Assembly: GCA_964371025.1 (NCBI GenBank)
Contig: CAYJKH010000001.1
Location: 2,077-66,076, forward strand
Length of the DNA: 64,000 bases
Reading direction: 5' to 3'
Source of the DNA: an uncultured Muribaculaceae bacterium
GTDB lineage: Bacteria > Bacillota_I > Bacilli_A > RF39 > UBA660
The notes under the pieces were generated by a model. It saw only the letters and a list, made by a program, of their open reading frames with translations. It ran no database searches and was not told the DNA's origin. Below are positions 2,533 through 12,367 of this stretch, one piece after another. Positions within the stretch are counted from its first letter, which is position 1, and each line of letters begins with the position of its first letter. Both the position numbers and the translations under genes were made by a program.

Positions 2533-2829
2533 ATGAATCTTATTGATCAGTATAAAATTTTGATTAGTGCATATTATGGGATATTAGAACTGGATGAATA
2601 TGATTTAAAATTATATTTATTGAAGGAAATAGAAGAATATATAAAAGATTATATAAAGCAAAATCCTATACCTAATTTGGATGAGTCATTAATAAAGGCA
2701 GAAGTTGAGAAAAAAGAAATGGATCGTAAACTGCAAGATGCTTTATTAACAGTTCCTAAAGTGACAAATAATATTGAACCAATCATTATCATTAAGCAAA
2801 AGTTAAGCAATTTAAAAAGAACTATTTAA
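2533..2829 (+). CDS. hypothetical small protein (start moved to ATG 2533 behind AGGAG RBS)
   Basis: ORF track 2509-2829; internal ATG at 2533 has RBS AGGAG 7 nt upstream; no recognisable domain; followed by a strong terminator. Confidence 0.4.
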   Translation: MNLIDQYKILISAYYGILELDEYDLKLYLLKEIEEYIKDYIKQNPIPNLDESLIKAEVEKKEMDRKLQDALLTVPKVTNNIEPIIIIKQKLSNLKRTI

Positions 2830-2853
2830 TTTAATTAAATAGTTCTTTTATTT
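2817..2853 (+). terminator. rho-independent terminator
   Basis: perfect 15-bp inverted repeat aagaactatttaatt/aattaaatagttctt followed by TTTTATTT. Confidence 0.7.
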
Positions 2854-2940
2854 ACACTTTTTTCTAAAATAAATGTAAAACTATTGATAGAAAAAAAAAT
2901 ATATGTTATTCTTAATAAGAATAAAGGATAGGTGAAGAGG

Positions 2941-3525
2941 ATGAATATAAGAAAAATGGCTATAGTAGCAGTATTACTTACAGTGTTTACTTTGGGTATA
3001 TCATATGCAAGTTTAAGTGTAATCTTAAACATTAATGGTACAGCTCAAGTAAGAGCAGCAAATTGGGATGTTCATTTTGAAAATTTAAGTGCTCCATTAA
3101 CAGAAGGCTTAGTACTAGTTAATGTTGAACCAACCTTAATTAGCAATTCAACTTCATTTTCAGACTTAAATGTAACATTTAATAGGACTAATTCAAGCAT
3201 TACTTATAATGTTGATTTAGTAAATGATGGAGATATTGATGCTCAAGTAAATAATGTTACTAGTACTACACCTTTATGTAATACAACATCAGTTGTTGCA
3301 GTTCCAAGTAATGCGGAACAAGATAAACAAGATGTTTGTAATGCTATCTCTCACTCTGTAAAGTATACAGCAGATGGGAGTGATGTAGCAATCGGAGATG
3401 ATTTACTTGCCGGTGAATCAAAAGAAGTAGCTATTAAAATCAATTATGCAGGTACTAATTTACCACTTAATGTAATTAGTATAAACAACTTAGAGACAGC
3501 TATAGGTTTTAGTCAAAAACCATAA
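2941..3525 (+). CDS. small exported protein with N-terminal signal anchor, paralog A (possible SipW substrate / TasA-like minor subunit)
   Basis: Lys/Arg N-terminus, hydrophobic segment, then ...SYASLSV...ANWDVHFENL. Shares the WDVHFENL block and overall architecture with the next ORF. Lies directly upstream of a SipW-type peptidase gene. Start placed at ATG 2941 behind AAGGATAGGTGAAGAGG. Confidence 0.55.
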   Translation: MNIRKMAIVAVLLTVFTLGISYASLSVILNINGTAQVRAANWDVHFENLSAPLTEGLVLVNVEPTLISNSTSFSDLNVTFNRTNSSITYNVDLVNDGDIDAQVNNVTSTTPLCNTTSVVAVPSNAEQDKQDVCNAISHSVKYTADGSDVAIGDDLLAGESKEVAIKINYAGTNLPLNVISINNLETAIGFSQKP

Positions 3526-3555
3526 AAATAAATAAAAAAGAGAGGAATTATAATT

Positions 3556-4146
3556 ATGAAAACAGAAAGAAATTTAAAAATATTAGTAATAGCAGCTATT
3601 ACTATAGCAATTGGAGGATTATCAATTGGATTTGCTGCATTTAGTAGAACACTAACAATTACAGGAGCAGAGGCTACAGTTAATAGTTCAAGTTGGGATG
3701 TACACTTTGAAAATTTAGTACCATCAACTACAGGAACAGCTACTACTACTGGAGGGTCTATCACACCAACTAATTCTACTAGTATTACAGGAATTGATAT
3801 GACACTTACATCTCCTGGAGATTCAGTAACTTATACTTTTGATGTAGTAAATGGTGGAGATTTTGATGCAATTGCTACTACTCTTAATATTGATACACCA
3901 ACATGTGTAGGGTCAGGAGTAAACGCAACAGTTGATGCAACAAATGTATGTAATAATTTAGAGTATACGTTAACTTATGCTGACGGATCAGATATTTTAA
4001 CTACACCTAGTTTAACAACAGCAGAAGGTACAAAAAGTATGAAATTAACATTAACTTATTCTAATGCTATAACAGCTGATCAATTACCAGCTTCAGCAGT
4101 TACAGTTTCAGATTTAAATGCATCAATTTTATATTCTCAAAACTAA
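3556..4146 (+). CDS. small exported protein, paralog B, with AAFS motif after the signal h-region (SipW-cognate-like)
   Basis: MKTERNLKILVIAAITIAIGGLSIGFAAFSRTLTITG: h-region followed by AAFS, reminiscent of the TasA/CalY AAF(N/S)D SipW-cognate signal; SSWDVHFENL block shared with paralog A; RBS GAGAGGA. Confidence 0.55.
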   Translation: MKTERNLKILVIAAITIAIGGLSIGFAAFSRTLTITGAEATVNSSSWDVHFENLVPSTTGTATTTGGSITPTNSTSITGIDMTLTSPGDSVTYTFDVVNGGDFDAIATTLNIDTPTCVGSGVNATVDATNVCNNLEYTLTYADGSDILTTPSLTTAEGTKSMKLTLTYSNAITADQLPASAVTVSDLNASILYSQN

Positions 4147-4240
4147 TATAAAATAAAATTAAGTAGGTGATAGTATTAAAAAGAGCTATATAAAAATTTT
4201 TCTACTATTTAGTACATTACTAGGATTAATATTAGCTAAT

Positions 4241-5305
4241 ATGTTTCTTTTTAAAAATGAAAACATATATATAATAGCTTCTGTAATAGCTCTTTTTTTA
4301 CTTTTAACAAAAGTATTAATTGGGATTGAAAGAAATAGAAGTAGATTAAAAAGTGAAGCAGTAATGAATGTATTTATATACGTAATGCTTTATCATATTA
4401 TATTATATATTTTAGGTATTTTTATAGGATTTACTAAATCACCTTATAGTTTTTCTATTATAAATTTAATTAGAAATATTACTCCAGTTTTATTAATAAT
4501 TGGATTAACAGAAGTATTTAGATATGCAAATGTAATTAAGAGTGAAAAAAGTAATAAATTATTATTATTTGTAACTATTGTTTTAATAATGTTAGATATT
4601 ACAGTTAAAACAAGTATGTATAATTTAGATGTAAGTACTAATTTATTAGAAATAGCATCTTTAGTAATATTACCAGCTATTGCAAATAATATTTTTTTAG
4701 GATATTTGGCGCTTTATTTTGGATGGGCTCCAGCTATATTATATAGAGTATTAATGGAAATACCGGAATATATAATTCCTATTTTACCAAATACTAATGA
4801 ATATTTAGATGCAATAGTAACCTTTTTATTTCCACTATTATTATTACTGCTATTTTATAGACTATTAAATAGAGATAAAAAAGATAAAAGTCCACTTAAG
4901 AAAAACTATTTTGGAATAGTAGTTACTAGTGTTTTAGTTATTATTACAGTATTTACAGTTGGTTTAACTAGTGGGTTATTTAAATATTATATGATAAGTA
5001 TAGGTTCAGGCTCGATGGAACCAAATATTTATGTGGGGGATTCAATAATTGTAAAAAAAGAAGATAATTTAAAAAATATTGAAATAGATGATATATTAGT
5101 TTTTAATCATAATAATTCTACAGTTGTTCATAGAGTAACTAGAATTATGGAAAAGAATAGTAGTTATGAATTTATAACAAAAGGAGACAATAACGAAGAA
5201 GAAGATAACTGGGTTGTTTCTGAAAAAGATGTTATAGGGACTGCAGAATTAAAAATAAGATACATTGGATATCCTACCATATGGTTAAATGAAAAGATTA
5301 ATTAG
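4241..5305 (+). CDS. sipW: signal peptidase I, SipW/archaeal-eukaryotic type (S26B), fused to a ~230-aa N-terminal polytopic membrane domain
   Basis: C-terminal ~120 aa carry all SipW boxes: GSGSMEP (catalytic Ser), VGDSIIV, VVHRVTRI (catalytic His), KGDNNEEED. N-terminal two-thirds is very hydrophobic with multiple predicted TM helices. Confidence 0.8.
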   Translation: MFLFKNENIYIIASVIALFLLLTKVLIGIERNRSRLKSEAVMNVFIYVMLYHIILYILGIFIGFTKSPYSFSIINLIRNITPVLLIIGLTEVFRYANVIKSEKSNKLLLFVTIVLIMLDITVKTSMYNLDVSTNLLEIASLVILPAIANNIFLGYLALYFGWAPAILYRVLMEIPEYIIPILPNTNEYLDAIVTFLFPLLLLLLFYRLLNRDKKDKSPLKKNYFGIVVTSVLVIITVFTVGLTSGLFKYYMISIGSGSMEPNIYVGDSIIVKKEDNLKNIEIDDILVFNHNNSTVVHRVTRIMEKNSSYEFITKGDNNEEEDNWVVSEKDVIGTAELKIRYIGYPTIWLNEKIN

Positions 5306-5319
5306 AAAGGGTTTATAAT

Positions 5320-6444
5320 ATGGCAAAAAAGATAACGTATAAAAGTAATGATAAAACATTTCATGTGCATTTGAGTTCAAAAAGAATAAGGAAATCAATT
5401 AAATTTGGATTTTTTCTTGTTGCGTCTATAATTTTTGTTGTATTATTTGCATTTTTCATTCTTAAATTAATTAGCACAAGTAATTCAGTATCAGTAGTTA
5501 CTTTTAATGAAAAAGGAACGGAAACATATAGAGTTTACTTAAAAGAAAATGATGACTATAAATCTGATTATCTAGGAGAAGATATGGAATATATATCATC
5601 TCTAATTGATTATGTTCAGTTTGATTATAATTATCAGTTGCACTCAAAAAATGAATTAACAATGGATTATAATTATAAAATTACAGCGGATTTAATTATT
5701 GCCAATAAAGAAGCTAATGGTAAGTACTTATATAAAGATACTTATGAATTAGAAAAAGGTAGTAAAAAAATAACTGATAAACAACTAATGATTTCAGATA
5801 GTGTTGAAATAGATTATGATAAATTTAATAAAATTTCTGAAGATATAAAAAAAGAACATGGTTTATATGCAGATAGTTATTTAGAAGTTAAATTTGAAAT
5901 GATTAATGACTCTACATCAAATGACGTGGATAATTCATTAAAAACAACTAATTCGTTGCTTGCAACTATCCCTTTAAATGAAATTACAATAGCAATTAGT
6001 ACTGCATCTAATACTTTTGATGAATCAAGAACAATTTCAAGAAAGAACTTAGAAGAGTTAATAAATTTGTATATGATTTTAGCAGGAGCATCATTCTTAT
6101 TAGCAGTAGTAAATGCATCTTTAGCAACTTATGTTTATCAAAAATATTATTCTAAAAAAGATATTTACTTAGCAACAGTAAAAAAATATTTAAGAGAATA
6201 TGATAGATTAATTGTTTCAAGTAAACAACCAGCTATTAATGAAAAACATTTTGAAAATAAAATAAGAGTAATGTCTATAGAGGAGTTAATTGATGCCCAT
6301 GATTCATCAGGAGCACCAATTATATACTATGAAGTAGAACCTAATGAAAAAAGTTACTTTGTTATTATAGATAATACAACATTATATAAATTAACAATTT
6401 CTAGAACATGGTTAGAAAATAATAAAAAAGACCCTATCGTTTAG
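5320..6444 (+). CDS. hypothetical membrane-anchored protein (two predicted TM segments), co-oriented with sipW
   Basis: N-terminal signal-anchor FGFFLVASIIFVVLFAFFIL and a second hydrophobic segment near residue 250; no recognisable domain. Confidence 0.45.
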   Translation: MAKKITYKSNDKTFHVHLSSKRIRKSIKFGFFLVASIIFVVLFAFFILKLISTSNSVSVVTFNEKGTETYRVYLKENDDYKSDYLGEDMEYISSLIDYVQFDYNYQLHSKNELTMDYNYKITADLIIANKEANGKYLYKDTYELEKGSKKITDKQLMISDSVEIDYDKFNKISEDIKKEHGLYADSYLEVKFEMINDSTSNDVDNSLKTTNSLLATIPLNEITIAISTASNTFDESRTISRKNLEELINLYMILAGASFLLAVVNASLATYVYQKYYSKKDIYLATVKKYLREYDRLIVSSKQPAINEKHFENKIRVMSIEELIDAHDSSGAPIIYYEVEPNEKSYFVIIDNTTLYKLTISRTWLENNKKDPIV

Positions 6445-6458
6445 GGCTTTTTTATTTT
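6430..6458 (+). terminator. weak rho-independent terminator
   Basis: CCCTA-tcgtt-TAGGG hairpin followed by CTTTTTTATTTTT; overlaps stop codon. Confidence 0.45.
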
Positions 6459-8152: not shown

Positions 8153-8226
8153 AATAGTGAATAATATTTGCTATTTTTTTAGTTTTATGTTATTATATAG
8201 ACCAAGTTTATTGCATGGAGGAAATT

Positions 8227-9477
8227 ATGAAAAAAATGTTTAAAATATTATTAATTATCGTTGTTTTTACAACAACTTTTATTGGAGTTATTCCAAGTGT
8301 TAGTGCTAAAGCACCAGCATCAGTTCAAGCAGGGGATGCAGAAAGATTAACACCACATATTGGAGGAGTTTCTTTTTCATATAAAACTTTATCTAATGGA
8401 GAATATGCTTATTGTTTAGAAGTAAAAAAAGGATTAACGCAAAATATAAAAGCAAATTTAGTAGGGGAATTAGATGCTGGATATGCATATATAGTAGCAA
8501 ATGGTTATCCAAATAAAAAAATAACTGGTAACAGAAACTACGATTACTCTATTACTCAAATAGCATTATGGCTTTATATGGACGAAACTAGTGGAACAGA
8601 TAATTTAGCATCTGGTTTTAGAAACAATGCAAGTGATCCTTATAATTTAATGTCACATGTTATCAAATTAACAGATGCAGCAAAAGCAGCAAAAGCAAAA
8701 GGGTATGCTAAACCTAGTATCAGTCTTTCAACACCTACATCTAGTATGAGCATTAGTGAAGATGGTAAATATTTTATTTCTAATCCTATAACACTAGGAG
8801 GAACATCTGTTTCATCGCCTAAAGTATCAATTGTAAGTAGCCCAGAGGGGACTATTATTACAGATGAAGAAGGAACTGAAAAAAAAGAATTTAAAATAGG
8901 GGATAAGTTTCTTTTAAAAACACCAGTAGAAAGTGTTACAGGAGAAGACGTTACCATTAATATTAAAACAAGTGGAACAGGTACAGTATATAAGGCTTAT
9001 GAATATAGCCCGGTAAATAATAATATGCAAAATATTGTACCACAATTAATTCCTGTAAGTACTGCAGTAGCAGATGAGGCTAGTTTTGACTTTTCAACAA
9101 CAACTGTTGTTATAAATAAAACGGATGCCTCAACTAAAAATTATTTAGCTGGAGCTGAATTAGTTATCAAAAAAGACGGGGTTGAAATAGATAGAATAAC
9201 TACAACAGGGGAAAAAATAGAAATTAAAAATTTAGGATATGGTAATTATACTATTGAAGAAGTTAAAGCACCTAATGGATATGAATTAACTACTAAAATA
9301 TATGAGTTTACTTTATCAGAGGAAAATCCTACGGCAGAAGTTACGATTGAAAACTTTCCAACTATAGAAGTACCAAATACTAGCAGTAGTTCAACATTAC
9401 TTCTATCATTAATAGGGTTTTTAATAATTTCATTCTCAGCAGGAATTATTTATAGACATGCAAAAGCAAAAAACTAA
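8227..9477 (+). CDS. cell-wall-anchored adhesin with thioester domain (TED) and CnaB-like domain; non-canonical sorting signal VPNTS
   Basis: Signal peptide. Cys in YAYCLEVKKG paired with the Gln motif SITQIALWLYMDE (TQxA(I/L)W thioester hallmark). C-terminal TIEEVKAPNGYEL (CnaB-like). C-terminus VPNTS + hydrophobic stretch + RHAKAKN. Start at ATG 8227 behind GGAGG. Confidence 0.7.
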   Translation: MKKMFKILLIIVVFTTTFIGVIPSVSAKAPASVQAGDAERLTPHIGGVSFSYKTLSNGEYAYCLEVKKGLTQNIKANLVGELDAGYAYIVANGYPNKKITGNRNYDYSITQIALWLYMDETSGTDNLASGFRNNASDPYNLMSHVIKLTDAAKAAKAKGYAKPSISLSTPTSSMSISEDGKYFISNPITLGGTSVSSPKVSIVSSPEGTIITDEEGTEKKEFKIGDKFLLKTPVESVTGEDVTINIKTSGTGTVYKAYEYSPVNNNMQNIVPQLIPVSTAVADEASFDFSTTTVVINKTDASTKNYLAGAELVIKKDGVEIDRITTTGEKIEIKNLGYGNYTIEEVKAPNGYELTTKIYEFTLSEENPTAEVTIENFPTIEVPNTSSSSTLLLSLIGFLIISFSAGIIYRHAKAKN

Positions 9478-10117
9478 TAAAAGAAAAGAATTCTCCCCAA
9501 ACACTATAGCAATATTTGGTTCAATATTAGCTATTTTAGGAGGATTTTTTCTTTCATATAATTATTTAGAAGAAAAAAAAATATATGCTCATGATCAAAT
9601 GGGGAATTTATTATACAAAGAGGAAGAACCAAAAGAAACTGTTGTAGAAGAAAAAGAAGAGGAAGTAGAACCTGTTCAAGAAGAAGTAAAAGTAGAAACT
9701 ATTGTTAACAAAAATGAATATTTAGGGTATTTAGAGATACCAAAAATTAATTTATTAAAAGGTTTTTATGATAAAACTTCTCCACTAAATGATGTGGAAA
9801 AAAATATTATGGTAATGCCAGAATCGTCATATCCGGATGTTGACCGAGGAAACTTAATTATTTCAGGTCACTCTGGAACAGGGTGGAAAGCATTTTTTGA
9901 CAACTTAGAAAAGCTTAATAAAGGTGATGAGTTAATTGTTAAATATAATAACAAAAAGTATACATACCAACTTACTAATATCTATGAAGTAGAAAAAGAT
10001 GGAACTGTTGCAATATATCGTAATTATAATAAAACAACTTTAACTTTAATCACGTGTACAAATAATATAGACACTTCACAAAGTATTTATATAGCAGAGT
10101 TAATATCTGTAGAATAA
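9458..10117 (+). CDS. sortase (TLxTC catalytic motif)
   Basis: N-terminal TM, YLGYLEIPKINL, active-site His in LIISGHSG, catalytic Cys in TLTLITCTNN; immediately downstream of the TED adhesin. Confidence 0.8.
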   Translation: MQKQKTNKRKEFSPNTIAIFGSILAILGGFFLSYNYLEEKKIYAHDQMGNLLYKEEEPKETVVEEKEEEVEPVQEEVKVETIVNKNEYLGYLEIPKINLLKGFYDKTSPLNDVEKNIMVMPESSYPDVDRGNLIISGHSGTGWKAFFDNLEKLNKGDELIVKYNNKKYTYQLTNIYEVEKDGTVAIYRNYNKTTLTLITCTNNIDTSQSIYIAELISVE

Positions 10118-10141
10118 AATATTTAAAAGGGGGTGAAGGTG

Positions 10142-11074
10142 ATGTCTAATATAAGTTTTTTAGATAAAATAAGAATAATTTTAGATCAAACTTCATCTTC
10201 AATTCTTTTTATTATTATCTTTATTTTAATGTTATTTTTCTGTTATATTATAGGAACTATGAATGAAGAAAAATTCAAAAATAATAAAAAGAAAATATTA
10301 ATTCCATTTTTACTATTACCAATTGGAATTATAATATTTTTCTTTGAACATATTACAAAATTATTTGATTCTATGATGAATAATTTATTTGTAATGATAT
10401 ACTTTCCAAATATTAGCTTATATATTAGTTTTATATTAATAACTAATATTATTGTAATAATATCTTTACTTAATAGTAAAATTTCAAAAGTTCTAAAGAT
10501 GGTTAATATCGGAGTATTCTTATTTTTAAATTTTATATTAATATTAATCCTAAACATAATAAAAACTAATGAATTAGATCCATTTAGTCAAACATCGCTA
10601 TATAGTAGTAATGATATAGTAGGATTAGTGGAAATATCTAGTGTCTTGTTTTTTATCTGGATTTTATTCTTAATAATTTATAAGGTTATTATTCAATATT
10701 TTGATTATAATAAATCTCCTATAAAAGAAGTAGAAGTAGTAGAAAAAATTGTATATGAAACTAAAAAAGAAATTCAAGTAGTAGAAAAAGAAGTATATAA
10801 AGAAGTTAATTTAGAAATGTTTACTCTTGCTGACTATAAAAAAATGCTTGAAATATTAAAAAAAGATAATCAAGTAATAAAACCATTAATTACAAAAACT
10901 TCTATAGAAGAAATAGTAGAAGAAAAAGAATACGAAATAAAAGAAGAAAAAGAATACGAAACAGAACTTGATCGTTTATTAGATTTTTCAAATAATACAG
11001 TATGTGACCCAATTGAGGTAACTACAAATTTAAAATATCTGGAATTACAAGAATTATATAAAAGTGTAAATTAA
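10142..11074 (+). CDS. hypothetical polytopic membrane protein with Lys/Glu-rich coiled-coil C-terminus
   Basis: multiple hydrophobic helices then KEVEVVEKIVYETKKEIQVVEKEVYKEV and tandem EEKEYE(I/T) repeats; ATG 10142 behind AAGGGGGTGAAGG. Confidence 0.45.
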   Translation: MSNISFLDKIRIILDQTSSSILFIIIFILMLFFCYIIGTMNEEKFKNNKKKILIPFLLLPIGIIIFFFEHITKLFDSMMNNLFVMIYFPNISLYISFILITNIIVIISLLNSKISKVLKMVNIGVFLFLNFILILILNIIKTNELDPFSQTSLYSSNDIVGLVEISSVLFFIWILFLIIYKVIIQYFDYNKSPIKEVEVVEKIVYETKKEIQVVEKEVYKEVNLEMFTLADYKKMLEILKKDNQVIKPLITKTSIEEIVEEKEYEIKEEKEYETELDRLLDFSNNTVCDPIEVTTNLKYLELQELYKSVN

Positions 11075-11135: not shown

Positions 11136-11182
11136 TATTAATAGTAATTTGATATAATGTATATTGTAGATTGGGGAACATT

Positions 11183-12367
11183 ATGAATTTAACAAAAAAA
11201 CATTCAGTAGTATTTTATATATCTTTATTTTTAATAATAACATTTACTACTTTAATTACAATTAGCTTTAATAGTACTTATTTAATTACTTTACCGATAA
11301 GAGTAATATTAATTATTTTAGTAGTTTTATTACTTGCTTATATTATATTTTATATTAAGATTAATAAAAAAATAAAAAAGGTTGCTTTTATTTTATTTAC
11401 AATTTATTTTTTAGGGTGTAGTGGATTTTTGTTTTTGTTATATGGATCTAACGAAACTTTTAGAACATGGTTAATTACTACTGCTATGAAAACTAAAACT
11501 CATCAGTATTATTGTATGTGGTTTTATAGTGATGAAACAATTGAAAAAGTTTTAAGTGAAAACTTCTTAGTAGAGCCAGAAGGAAATACAGATCCTAATT
11601 TAATAAATGGACAAGTTACATATGCTAATGAATATGAAAAGCAAATCCTAGATAGAGATAGTGATGCTTTATATAAAATTATTCGTTTTAAAGTAAATGA
11701 TCAAGATGCTTATTTAGCAGCAATTTATGATCCAGCTGATGTTCATGTTGCAGTTACTAAAGACTTAAATGTTTCAGGACAATTTGTAACCGAGATGGCT
11801 GAAGATCATAAAGCTCCACTAGCAATTAATGGTGGTAACTTTATAGATCCAAATTATAGTAGTACAGGAGGAACACCTAAGGGAATTACTTTCTCAATGG
11901 GGCAAATGTATACAGGAACTGGGCAAATTTCAAATATAGTAGGATTCAATGAAGATAATGTATTAATGTTAATGAGAAATACCTCATCAACTGAAGTTGA
12001 AAATAATAATATTAGAGATTGTGTATATGGATATCCCTTTTTAATAGTAAATGGGGAACCTGCCTTTGCTAGAGGTAATGGTGGATGGGGATATGCGGCA
12101 AGAACAGCGATTGGTCAAAGAAGCGATGGAATTGTTTTAATGTTAGTAGTAGATTCAAATGAGTTTAGAACTAATGGAGCGTCTATGATAGATATGACTG
12201 AAATAATGCAAAGATATGGAGCCGTTAATGCCTCAGCCTTAGATGGTGGAACATCTAGTGTAATGGTTGAAAATTATGAATTAATTAGTGATCCAATTGA
12301 TGGAGGATTAAGACATCAAACAAGACCAGTAGCAACAAGCTTTATTGTAAAAGATCTAGATAAATAA
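11183..12367 (+). CDS. membrane-anchored protein, probable phosphodiester glycosidase (NAGPA-like, DUF2233) family
   Basis: N-terminal TM helices; C-terminal region with LDGGTSSVMV resembling the conserved DGGGSS motif of the phosphodiester glycosidase family; weak call. Confidence 0.4.
   Translation: MNLTKKHSVVFYISLFLIITFTTLITISFNSTYLITLPIRVILIILVVLLLAYIIFYIKINKKIKKVAFILFTIYFLGCSGFLFLLYGSNETFRTWLITTAMKTKTHQYYCMWFYSDETIEKVLSENFLVEPEGNTDPNLINGQVTYANEYEKQILDRDSDALYKIIRFKVNDQDAYLAAIYDPADVHVAVTKDLNVSGQFVTEMAEDHKAPLAINGGNFIDPNYSSTGGTPKGITFSMGQMYTGTGQISNIVGFNEDNVLMLMRNTSSTEVENNNIRDCVYGYPFLIVNGEPAFARGNGGWGYAARTAIGQRSDGIVLMLVVDSNEFRTNGASMIDMTEIMQRYGAVNASALDGGTSSVMVENYELISDPIDGGLRHQTRPVATSFIVKDLDK

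Follow-up and report, generated by a model that had tools for sequence, protein, structure and literature searches.

A SipW-like signal peptidase fused to a predicted eight-helix membrane module in an AbpX-like fibre operon of a gut-type Bacillota genome

Fibres of the TasA superfamily (TasA, AbpA, AbpX and tafi) give the biofilms of bacteria and archaea their cohesion, and the release and polymerisation of their subunits at the membrane are poorly understood. SipW, the signal peptidase of the Bacillus system, is ~190 amino acids (aa) long, with one N-terminal and one C-terminal anchor. AbpX is a member of the superfamily with homologues in Bacillota and Chloroflexota; AbpX-type fibre loci are defined by, among other things, subunits that polymerise by calcium-assisted donor-strand complementation, and in Bacillota they often lie near LPXTG or sortase genes (bioRxiv 10.64898/2026.01.04.697558, 4 January 2026). 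The same preprint proposes DUF5305 as an accessory subunit of signal peptidase I and gives one sentence to the peptidases of AbpX loci, which have “ten TM helices” (TM, transmembrane), leaving their extra domain, family and function unanalysed. In the tafi system of Haloarcula hispanica, deletion and complementation showed that TafD is needed for the processing of TafA, and DUF5305 proteins (TafG) accompany SipW-like peptidases or are fused to them (PMC11821415). Here we describe a gene from a 64,000-nucleotide stretch of contig CAYJKH010000001.1 (the window), annotated at 4241..5305 (+). In its product a SipW-like (S26B) catalytic domain is genuinely fused, in frame, to a polytopic membrane module on the N-terminal side, as the original prediction had proposed. 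The many-helix architecture is already mentioned in the literature and is common in gut Bacillota, and is not new; the locus is a compact four-gene example of it from a low-GC, gut-type Bacillota genome.

As read from the sequence, the C-terminal ~130 residues of the protein are a complete endoplasmic reticulum/archaeal-type (S26B, Ser-His) signal peptidase I. The NCBIfam model TIGR02228 (sigpep_I_arch) matches aa 225–353 of the annotated 354-aa form with 82.2 bits (cutoff 51.85), and the Pfam families S24 (26.6 against 23.3) and S26 (26.2 against 22.9) both pass their cutoffs. In a search of solved structures, human SEC11A was matched by the last 144 residues at E 3.3e-12 with 32% identity, the transmembrane anchor, SGSMEP, VHRV and TKGDNN all being aligned, and an AlphaFold2 model found PDB entries 7p2p and 7p2q at E 5e-6 with Foldseek. 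Apart from that TIGR02228 span, residue numbers refer to a 376-aa form of the protein, the start of which is discussed below; subtracting 22 gives the numbering of the 354-aa form. All of 65 family sequences have S280, H319, R320, D338 and D344, and the features of subfamily S26B are present: Ser within an SGSMxP motif, His rather than Lys in the HR motif, Asp in the GDNN box, and a transmembrane anchor directly before a catalytic domain that is predicted to be extracytoplasmic. The protein has no hydrophobic C-terminal segment, so that a C-terminal transmembrane anchor is absent. The equivalog model for Bacillus SipW, NF046067 (SigPepSipWBacil), scores 77.8 bits, below its cutoff of 190, and the peptidase is therefore not a SipW orthologue.

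The fusion is widely conserved. A homologue search over 5.8 billion proteins gave 512 relatives, the best 120 of which are nearly all 360–395 aa long with 87–100% query coverage, and the homologue alignments are unbroken across the linker between module and peptidase. A profile of the module only, run against 1.84 billion cluster representatives (clusters at 50% identity), matched 1365 clusters at E ≤ 1e-3 and 846 at ≤ 1e-10; the best 150 of the 1365 are nearly all fused, at ~375–385 aa, and most of the shorter matches stop within the anchor helix, as truncations at contig ends would. The domain combination, originally described as unusual, is so in relation to Bacillus SipW and not otherwise, given this number of clusters. 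With a 5-sequence alignment, 297 relatives were confirmed in species-representative genomes. The carriers are uncultured Bacilli (often labelled Tenericutes or Mollicutes), Clostridia (among them Tissierella, Sedimentibacter, Oribacterium, Stomatobaculum and Phosphitispora) and one Chloroflexi metagenome-assembled genome (MAG). Several MAGs with close relatives (L001, L002, L003, L010, L037 and L065) are labelled ‘uncultured Muribaculaceae’ (Bacteroidota), and on carriers of a low-GC Bacillota-type operon these labels look like binning or naming errors. In one cluster representative of 812 aa (P0129), the module and the beginning of the peptidase domain are joined to ~500 further residues that appear, by eye, to be 5'-nucleotidase/metallophosphoesterase-like; an assembly chimera or a read-through is the probable cause.

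An open reading frame of 354 aa was confirmed at 4241..5305 (+), and this is the form in which the protein is publicly annotated. It most likely begins 22 codons too late, which would cut away nearly all of the first transmembrane helix. Upstream of ATG 4241 the frame is free of stops from 4163 (TAA 4160–4162 precedes it) and has no ATG, GTG or TTG, and the 22 codons 5' of this ATG align with the N-termini of ~380-aa homologues; for example, IKKSYIKIFLLFSTLLGLILAN pairs with MKISYIKICVVNITLLVLALLN. Judged from the nucleotide sequence, the true start is most likely the near-cognate codon ATT at 4175, giving a protein of 376 aa. Starts after AGGTG at the same aligned position are ATC in L001 (5989–6003) and ATA in L002 and L003 (around 5992–6003), the latter two having an alternative start, GTG, three codons before the ATA. 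The closest clade thus appears to start at near-cognate codons; more distant relatives start with ATG. Such starts might hold the peptidase scarce relative to the fibre subunits. A programmed frameshift from the out-of-frame GTG 4167 was rejected as an explanation, because L001 has the same ATY arrangement without a slippery A-run.

The module shows repeated hydrophobic stretches across the first ~225–230 residues of the annotated protein, and AlphaFold2 predicts these to be transmembrane helices. The model of the full-length protein has a mean predicted local distance difference test score (pLDDT) of 88.2 and a predicted template modelling score (pTM) of 0.62; for the module alone, the values are 92.8 and 0.89. 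Nine membrane helices are predicted, eight in the module plus the anchor of the peptidase, in place of the six or seven hydrophobic helices counted originally ahead of the catalytic core. Lysine and arginine residues number 16 in the predicted cytoplasmic loops against 2 in the predicted outer loops, which fits the prediction of nine spans, an N-terminus inside and a catalytic domain outside. Within the module, G81, G85, E113, R116, P202, Y210 and P220 are invariant in the 65 sequences, and N101, P104, D141 (94%), N172, Y177, Y190 and P205 are conserved in at least 90%. Distant Clostridial members keep ExxR and P202/P205, with D141 sometimes replaced by N, K, T or S. There is no conserved His in the module (top column frequency 23%) and no conserved Cys (34%); the latter led us to reject an exosortase/archaeosortase-like module.

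Neither Pfam nor NCBIfam has a match over the first 220 residues of the annotated protein, and the module profile found nothing among PDB sequences at E ≤ 10. In Foldseek searches the only PDB chains to match the whole module were CPBP/Abi-fold proteins, namely SpdC in the SagB–SpdC complex (6u0o_A; template modelling (TM) score 0.55/0.55, root-mean-square deviation 5.9, probability 0.75), Rce1 (4cad; TM 0.41–0.48, with 0.48/0.47) and APH-1 of gamma-secretase (8oqy_C and 5a63_C; TM 0.29–0.38, with 0.36/0.38). Rhodopsins, G-protein-coupled receptors, MATE, TMEM63, MotA and TolQ appear in the same list with TM 0.26 or less, and Rce1 was also found when the full-length model was searched. Both SpdC and APH-1 work as partners to other membrane hydrolases, in the SagB complex and in gamma-secretase respectively. 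The CPBP motifs EExxxR, FxxxH and HxxxN/D are not present in the module, which has an invariant ExxR, no conserved His, and Asp or another residue at the candidate position of motif 2. The relation to CPBP proteins, as seen in the model, is one of fold-level resemblance and not of family membership. In one locus, a gene for a genuine CPBP/Rce1-like protease (L038:2520–3629; PF02517, 59 bits) does lie 2.2 kb upstream of the long peptidase gene. No further CPBP gene was found in ~860 kb of fetched loci and the window by a strict motif search and a jackhmmer search seeded from L038, and the proximity is therefore probably coincidence. A text search for literature linking CPBP or Rce1 with SipW, AbpX or signal peptidase I returned nothing relevant.

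The peptidase gene is the third of four on the same strand (Table 1), with gaps of 30, 28 and 14 nt; these short gaps and the terminator-like site after the DUF5305 gene indicate a single operon. The region has three terminator-like sites, where shuffled sequences would lead one to expect 0.5. The two upstream genes encode proteins that individually have no Pfam match. A profile of their family has AbpX as its best PDB matches (9sj2_C, E 9e-5; 9rhp_A, E 6e-4), the match spanning residues 5–160 of a 163-residue chain, that is, nearly the whole mature chain; a weak match to camelysin/Peptidase_M73 occurs in 5 of 23 family members. The family is characterised by a signal ending GFA/AFS (the slash marks the predicted cleavage point here and below), a strand xxLTINGTAxV, the motif PGDxxxYxFxVxNxGxxDA and a C-terminal YxQ, and A27, L33, N99, G101 and A105 are invariant in the 23 homologues. 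Alignment to the mature AbpX chain suggests that cleavage takes place after the invariant Ala27, the predicted −1 position. Scans with Pfam and NCBIfam detected no TapA-like gene in the operon, and Rfam has no match in the window at gathering thresholds.

This gene arrangement recurs. Eighty loci were fetched, 73 with a long peptidase reading frame and 7 with a short, canonical peptidase. DUF5305 is close by on the same strand in 57 of the 73 long-peptidase loci (immediately downstream in 39), and AbpX-like genes, one to seven of them detectable by BLASTP, lie upstream in 44; neither is found in any of the 7 short-peptidase loci. Tandem sets of four to seven AbpX-like paralogues stand 5' of the peptidase in L069:514–5611, L028:3234–5757 and L041:2876–5601, compared with two here, which points to an expansion of the major and minor subunit sets.

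Table 1 Features of the operon and of the peptidase gene (nucleotide positions in the window; aa numbering of the 376-aa form)
Feature	Position	Strand	Details and evidence
AbpX-like (TasA-superfamily) fibre subunit 1, 197 aa	2932..3525	+	Predicted SipW-type signal ends GISYA/SLSVILNINGT
AbpX-like fibre subunit 2, 196 aa	3556..4146	+	Predicted cleavage GFA27/A28FSRTLTITG; PGDxxxYxFxVxNxGxxDA motif
Shine-Dalgarno-like site and probable near-cognate start	4165..4177	+	AGGTGAT 4165–4171, 3-nt spacer, ATT 4175–4177; read from sequence
Peptidase with module, probably 376 aa	4175..5305	+	
Eight-helix membrane module, aa 1–236 (predicted)	4175..4882	+	AlphaFold2 model, conservation
Module helices (predicted)			aa 3–26, 31–48, 59–84, 95–122, 127–146, 155–182, 185–205 (kinked, Pro-rich), 209–236
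Module hallmark residues			E113 (4511–4513), R116 (4520–4522), D141, N172, P202, P205, Y210, P220
Lys-rich cytoplasmic linker, aa 237–244 (predicted)	4883..4906	+	pLDDT <50 at 239–242; loop 232–246 has 6 Lys/Arg
Transmembrane anchor of the signal peptidase, aa 245–266, inside to outside (predicted)	4907..4972	+	SEC11A transmembrane helix alignment, AlphaFold2 helix
Extracytoplasmic S26B catalytic domain, aa 267–376, plus stop; beta-rich (predicted)	4973..5305	+	TIGR02228, SEC11A, Foldseek, conservation
Catalytic-domain residues	5012–5014; 5129–5131; 5186–5188; 5204–5206	+	Ser280 (TCG); His319 (CAT); Asp338; Asp344
DUF5305 protein, 374 aa, candidate signal-peptidase accessory subunit	5320..6444	+	PF17231, 43.2 bits (cutoff 29); 14 nt downstream of the peptidase gene
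Terminator-like hairpin (6432–6446) plus T-run, closing the operon	6432..6456	+	

Taken together, we think the gene probably encodes a dedicated fibre-subunit signal peptidase in which the module acts as a scaffold or dock. That the two upstream AbpX-like proteins are the substrates of this S26B peptidase is very likely; the part given to the module, a non-catalytic scaffold or substrate dock, is more tentative, though quite possible. The AbpX-like subunits would be exported with a SipW-type signal and cut by the extracytoplasmic domain (Ser280/His319/Asp338) after the invariant small residue, at GFA/AFS. This would free the N-terminal strand AFSxxLTINGTA, which is the strand that AbpX and TasA fibres use for donor-strand complementation, inserting it into the next subunit. 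The module, as an N-in/C-in bundle, would fix the anchor helix and the active site at a set position relative to the membrane, and may offer a membrane-embedded docking surface for the signal peptides of the subunits, for the two-helix DUF5305 partner, or for both. The resemblance of the predicted fold to the scaffold proteins SpdC and APH-1 is compatible with such a part, and no histidine is conserved in the module. Such a complex would correspond, in one chain, to the multi-subunit signal peptidase complex of eukaryotes or to the SpdC–SagB pair.

Several observations weigh against a non-catalytic scaffold of CPBP type. The Foldseek E-values of the CPBP-fold matches are weak, at 1.2–2.7. When 13 modules were compared with Pfam at E ≤ 10, only chance, scattered hits were obtained and PF02517 was among the families not matched, while the genuine CPBP protein from L038, run as a control in the same test, scored 59.4 bits to PF02517. 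The module was also compared with a CPBP subfamily alignment built from the genuine PF02517 protein, and hhalign gave 1% probability with each of two query alignments, the aligned regions being inconsistent. The full-length pTM of just 0.62 makes the contact between module and peptidase in the model uncertain. The invariant E113 and R116 and the near-invariant D141, lying within the membrane, would fit a catalytic or ion-binding site as well. Finally, a stand-alone module gene exists (P0174; L081:1982–2689, also in L082 and L083), of 235 aa with a stop codon, on three independent metagenome contigs, beside Coat_F and Cu_amine_oxidN1 and with no signal peptidase nearby. It retains the ExxR, D and PSISKN motifs, and the module may thus have a function of its own away from peptidases.

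The conserved charged residues are also the starting point of a different explanation, which makes the module an active intramembrane protease of CPBP/Rce1 descent, with Glu113 (together with Arg116 and Asp141) replacing the Glu/His set. E113 and R116 are invariant, D141 is nearly so, all three are in predicted membrane helices, and the predicted fold resembles that of Rce1. Moreover, the first hhalign run placed E113/R116 on EExxxR and D141 on the FxxxH histidine, with an Arg-to-Phe spacing of 21 in both families. This alignment (P 0.054) disappeared, however, when a more diverse query alignment gave a different and meaningless one; we have rejected the motif correspondence as evidence of homology and keep it as a lead, since the probability was 1% both times. 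The module has no conserved His, D141 is replaced in several distant members, and SpdC, the closest structural match, acts as the partner of another hydrolase and not as a protease. We therefore regard an active protease as unlikely, and are equally doubtful of its extension to a two-protease machine, in which the outer domain would remove the signal peptide and the membrane domain would degrade or trim the remnant as a signal-peptide peptidase. A diverged CPBP-type domain that uses the invariant Glu113/Arg116 for membrane chemistry or for specific binding is likewise a speculative alternative. It is conceivable, with similarly little weight, that the domain clears the cleaved signal peptide or captures the AbpX signal by its positively charged start, in a ‘cut-and-clear’ or ‘dock-and-cut’ arrangement.

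The module might instead be a platform for fibre assembly or anchoring, holding the first or last subunit at the membrane and promoting donor-strand exchange, as TapA or AbpB may do in other systems. The fusion is tied to fibre-subunit operons, there is no TapA-like gene here, and G81, G85, F86, Y91, N101, P202, P205 and Y210 are predicted to sit at the outer face or close to it, beside the catalytic domain. On the other hand, the outer loops are short (8–13 residues) and offer little surface to a folded subunit, and there are better candidates for an anchor in DUF5305, which has a large extracellular domain, and in the LPXTG protein and sortase encoded nearby (described below); we consider the platform quite improbable. 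The related suggestion in the original prediction, of a fused accessory protein with a TapA-like role, is also unlikely: TapA is secreted and the module is an integral membrane bundle, and a separate accessory candidate, DUF5305, is encoded directly downstream. The fusion itself might be suspected of being artificial, a membrane-protein gene having been joined to a normal sipW by a frameshift, a sequencing error or mis-assembly, because the database annotation probably has a wrong start and is to that extent imperfect, and because one homologue (L084) looks split. In L084 the break falls at a run of N in the scaffold and is therefore itself an artefact, and most short matches end in the anchor helix. 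The same ~380-aa fused single reading frame is present in hundreds of assemblies, independent of one another and drawn from many Bacillota lineages, with continuous alignment over the linker, and we consider an artefact extremely improbable. As regards the existence of the two parts as separate genes elsewhere, the module does occur by itself, in P0174, with no adjoining peptidase.

A peptidase of this kind is thus no curiosity, being present in more than 1000 sequence clusters and in a fixed gene order beside DUF5305. If the module is a CPBP-fold scaffold or dock, this would be another case in which the fold partners a membrane hydrolase, after SpdC–SagB and APH-1 in gamma-secretase, and it would explain how a signal peptidase can be specific for one substrate family. 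If it is a diverged CPBP-type domain still active in chemistry or binding, it would represent a new functional branch of the CPBP fold, and the protein would be a bacterial counterpart of the multi-subunit eukaryotic complex. The annotation of the family can be improved: its members are called ‘signal peptidase I’, two thirds of the protein are without a domain, and the start in this genome is most likely 22 codons late.

Among the neighbouring genes, one pair may be relevant to the fibre system. Two overlapping genes occupy 8215–10117, 1.8 kb downstream of the operon and past sufS/sufU-like genes. The first encodes an LPXTG-type surface protein of 420 aa, which has thioester (TED) and SpaA prealbumin-like domains, and the second a sortase; in L003 a homologous pair (2555–4589) stands directly upstream of the AbpX-like genes. 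The LPXTG protein and its sortase may anchor the fibre system to the cell wall, in line with the suggestion of the AbpX preprint for bacterial loci. The protein encoded just after the sortase (10133–11074) is 313 aa long, contains several hydrophobic helices and ends in a tail rich in Glu and Lys; Pfam does not match it, and its sole NCBIfam match, to the Mbov_0395 pilin-like conjugal transfer family, is below threshold (19.4 bits, cutoff 40). Further downstream (11171–12367), a 398-aa membrane-anchored protein has a phosphodiester glycosidase (NAGPA, PF09992) domain at E 6e-34.

Set beside the known systems, the module as modelled is most like SpdC (6u0o), Rce1 (4cad) and APH-1 (8oqy, 5a63), eight-helix, N-in/C-in bundles of ~240 residues such as is predicted for it; it differs from these CPBP/Abi-fold proteins in having no significant sequence or profile similarity to them and in not keeping EExxxR, FxxxH and HxxxN. 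The catalytic domain has SEC11A/C (7p2p, 7p2q) as its closest solved relative, and these too work with extra membrane subunits, although there the accessory helices belong to separate proteins, SPCS1–3, whereas here they are fused and unrelated in sequence. With Bacillus subtilis SipW (tapA-sipW-tasA) the peptidase has in common the S26B Ser-His subfamily, the SGSM, HR and GDNN motifs and a position beside a TasA-superfamily subunit; unlike SipW, it has 376 aa with a 236-aa module and no C-terminal anchor, and its operon contains DUF5305 and no TapA. The TafD/TafG pair is similar in being a dedicated SipW-like peptidase for fibre subunits paired with DUF5305 (PMC11821415). TafD differs in its four predicted transmembrane helices, its second, C-terminal extracellular domain, its lack of an N-terminal eight-helix module and its Tat-pathway substrates. 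From the AbpX loci the present one departs in its nine predicted helices against ten and in the absence of a C-terminal anchor, and the gap of one helix may reflect counting or lineage. In all else compared it is like them, with AbpX-like subunits, a many-helix TIGR02228-type peptidase and DUF5305, a membership that rests on these matching features and not on sequence comparison.

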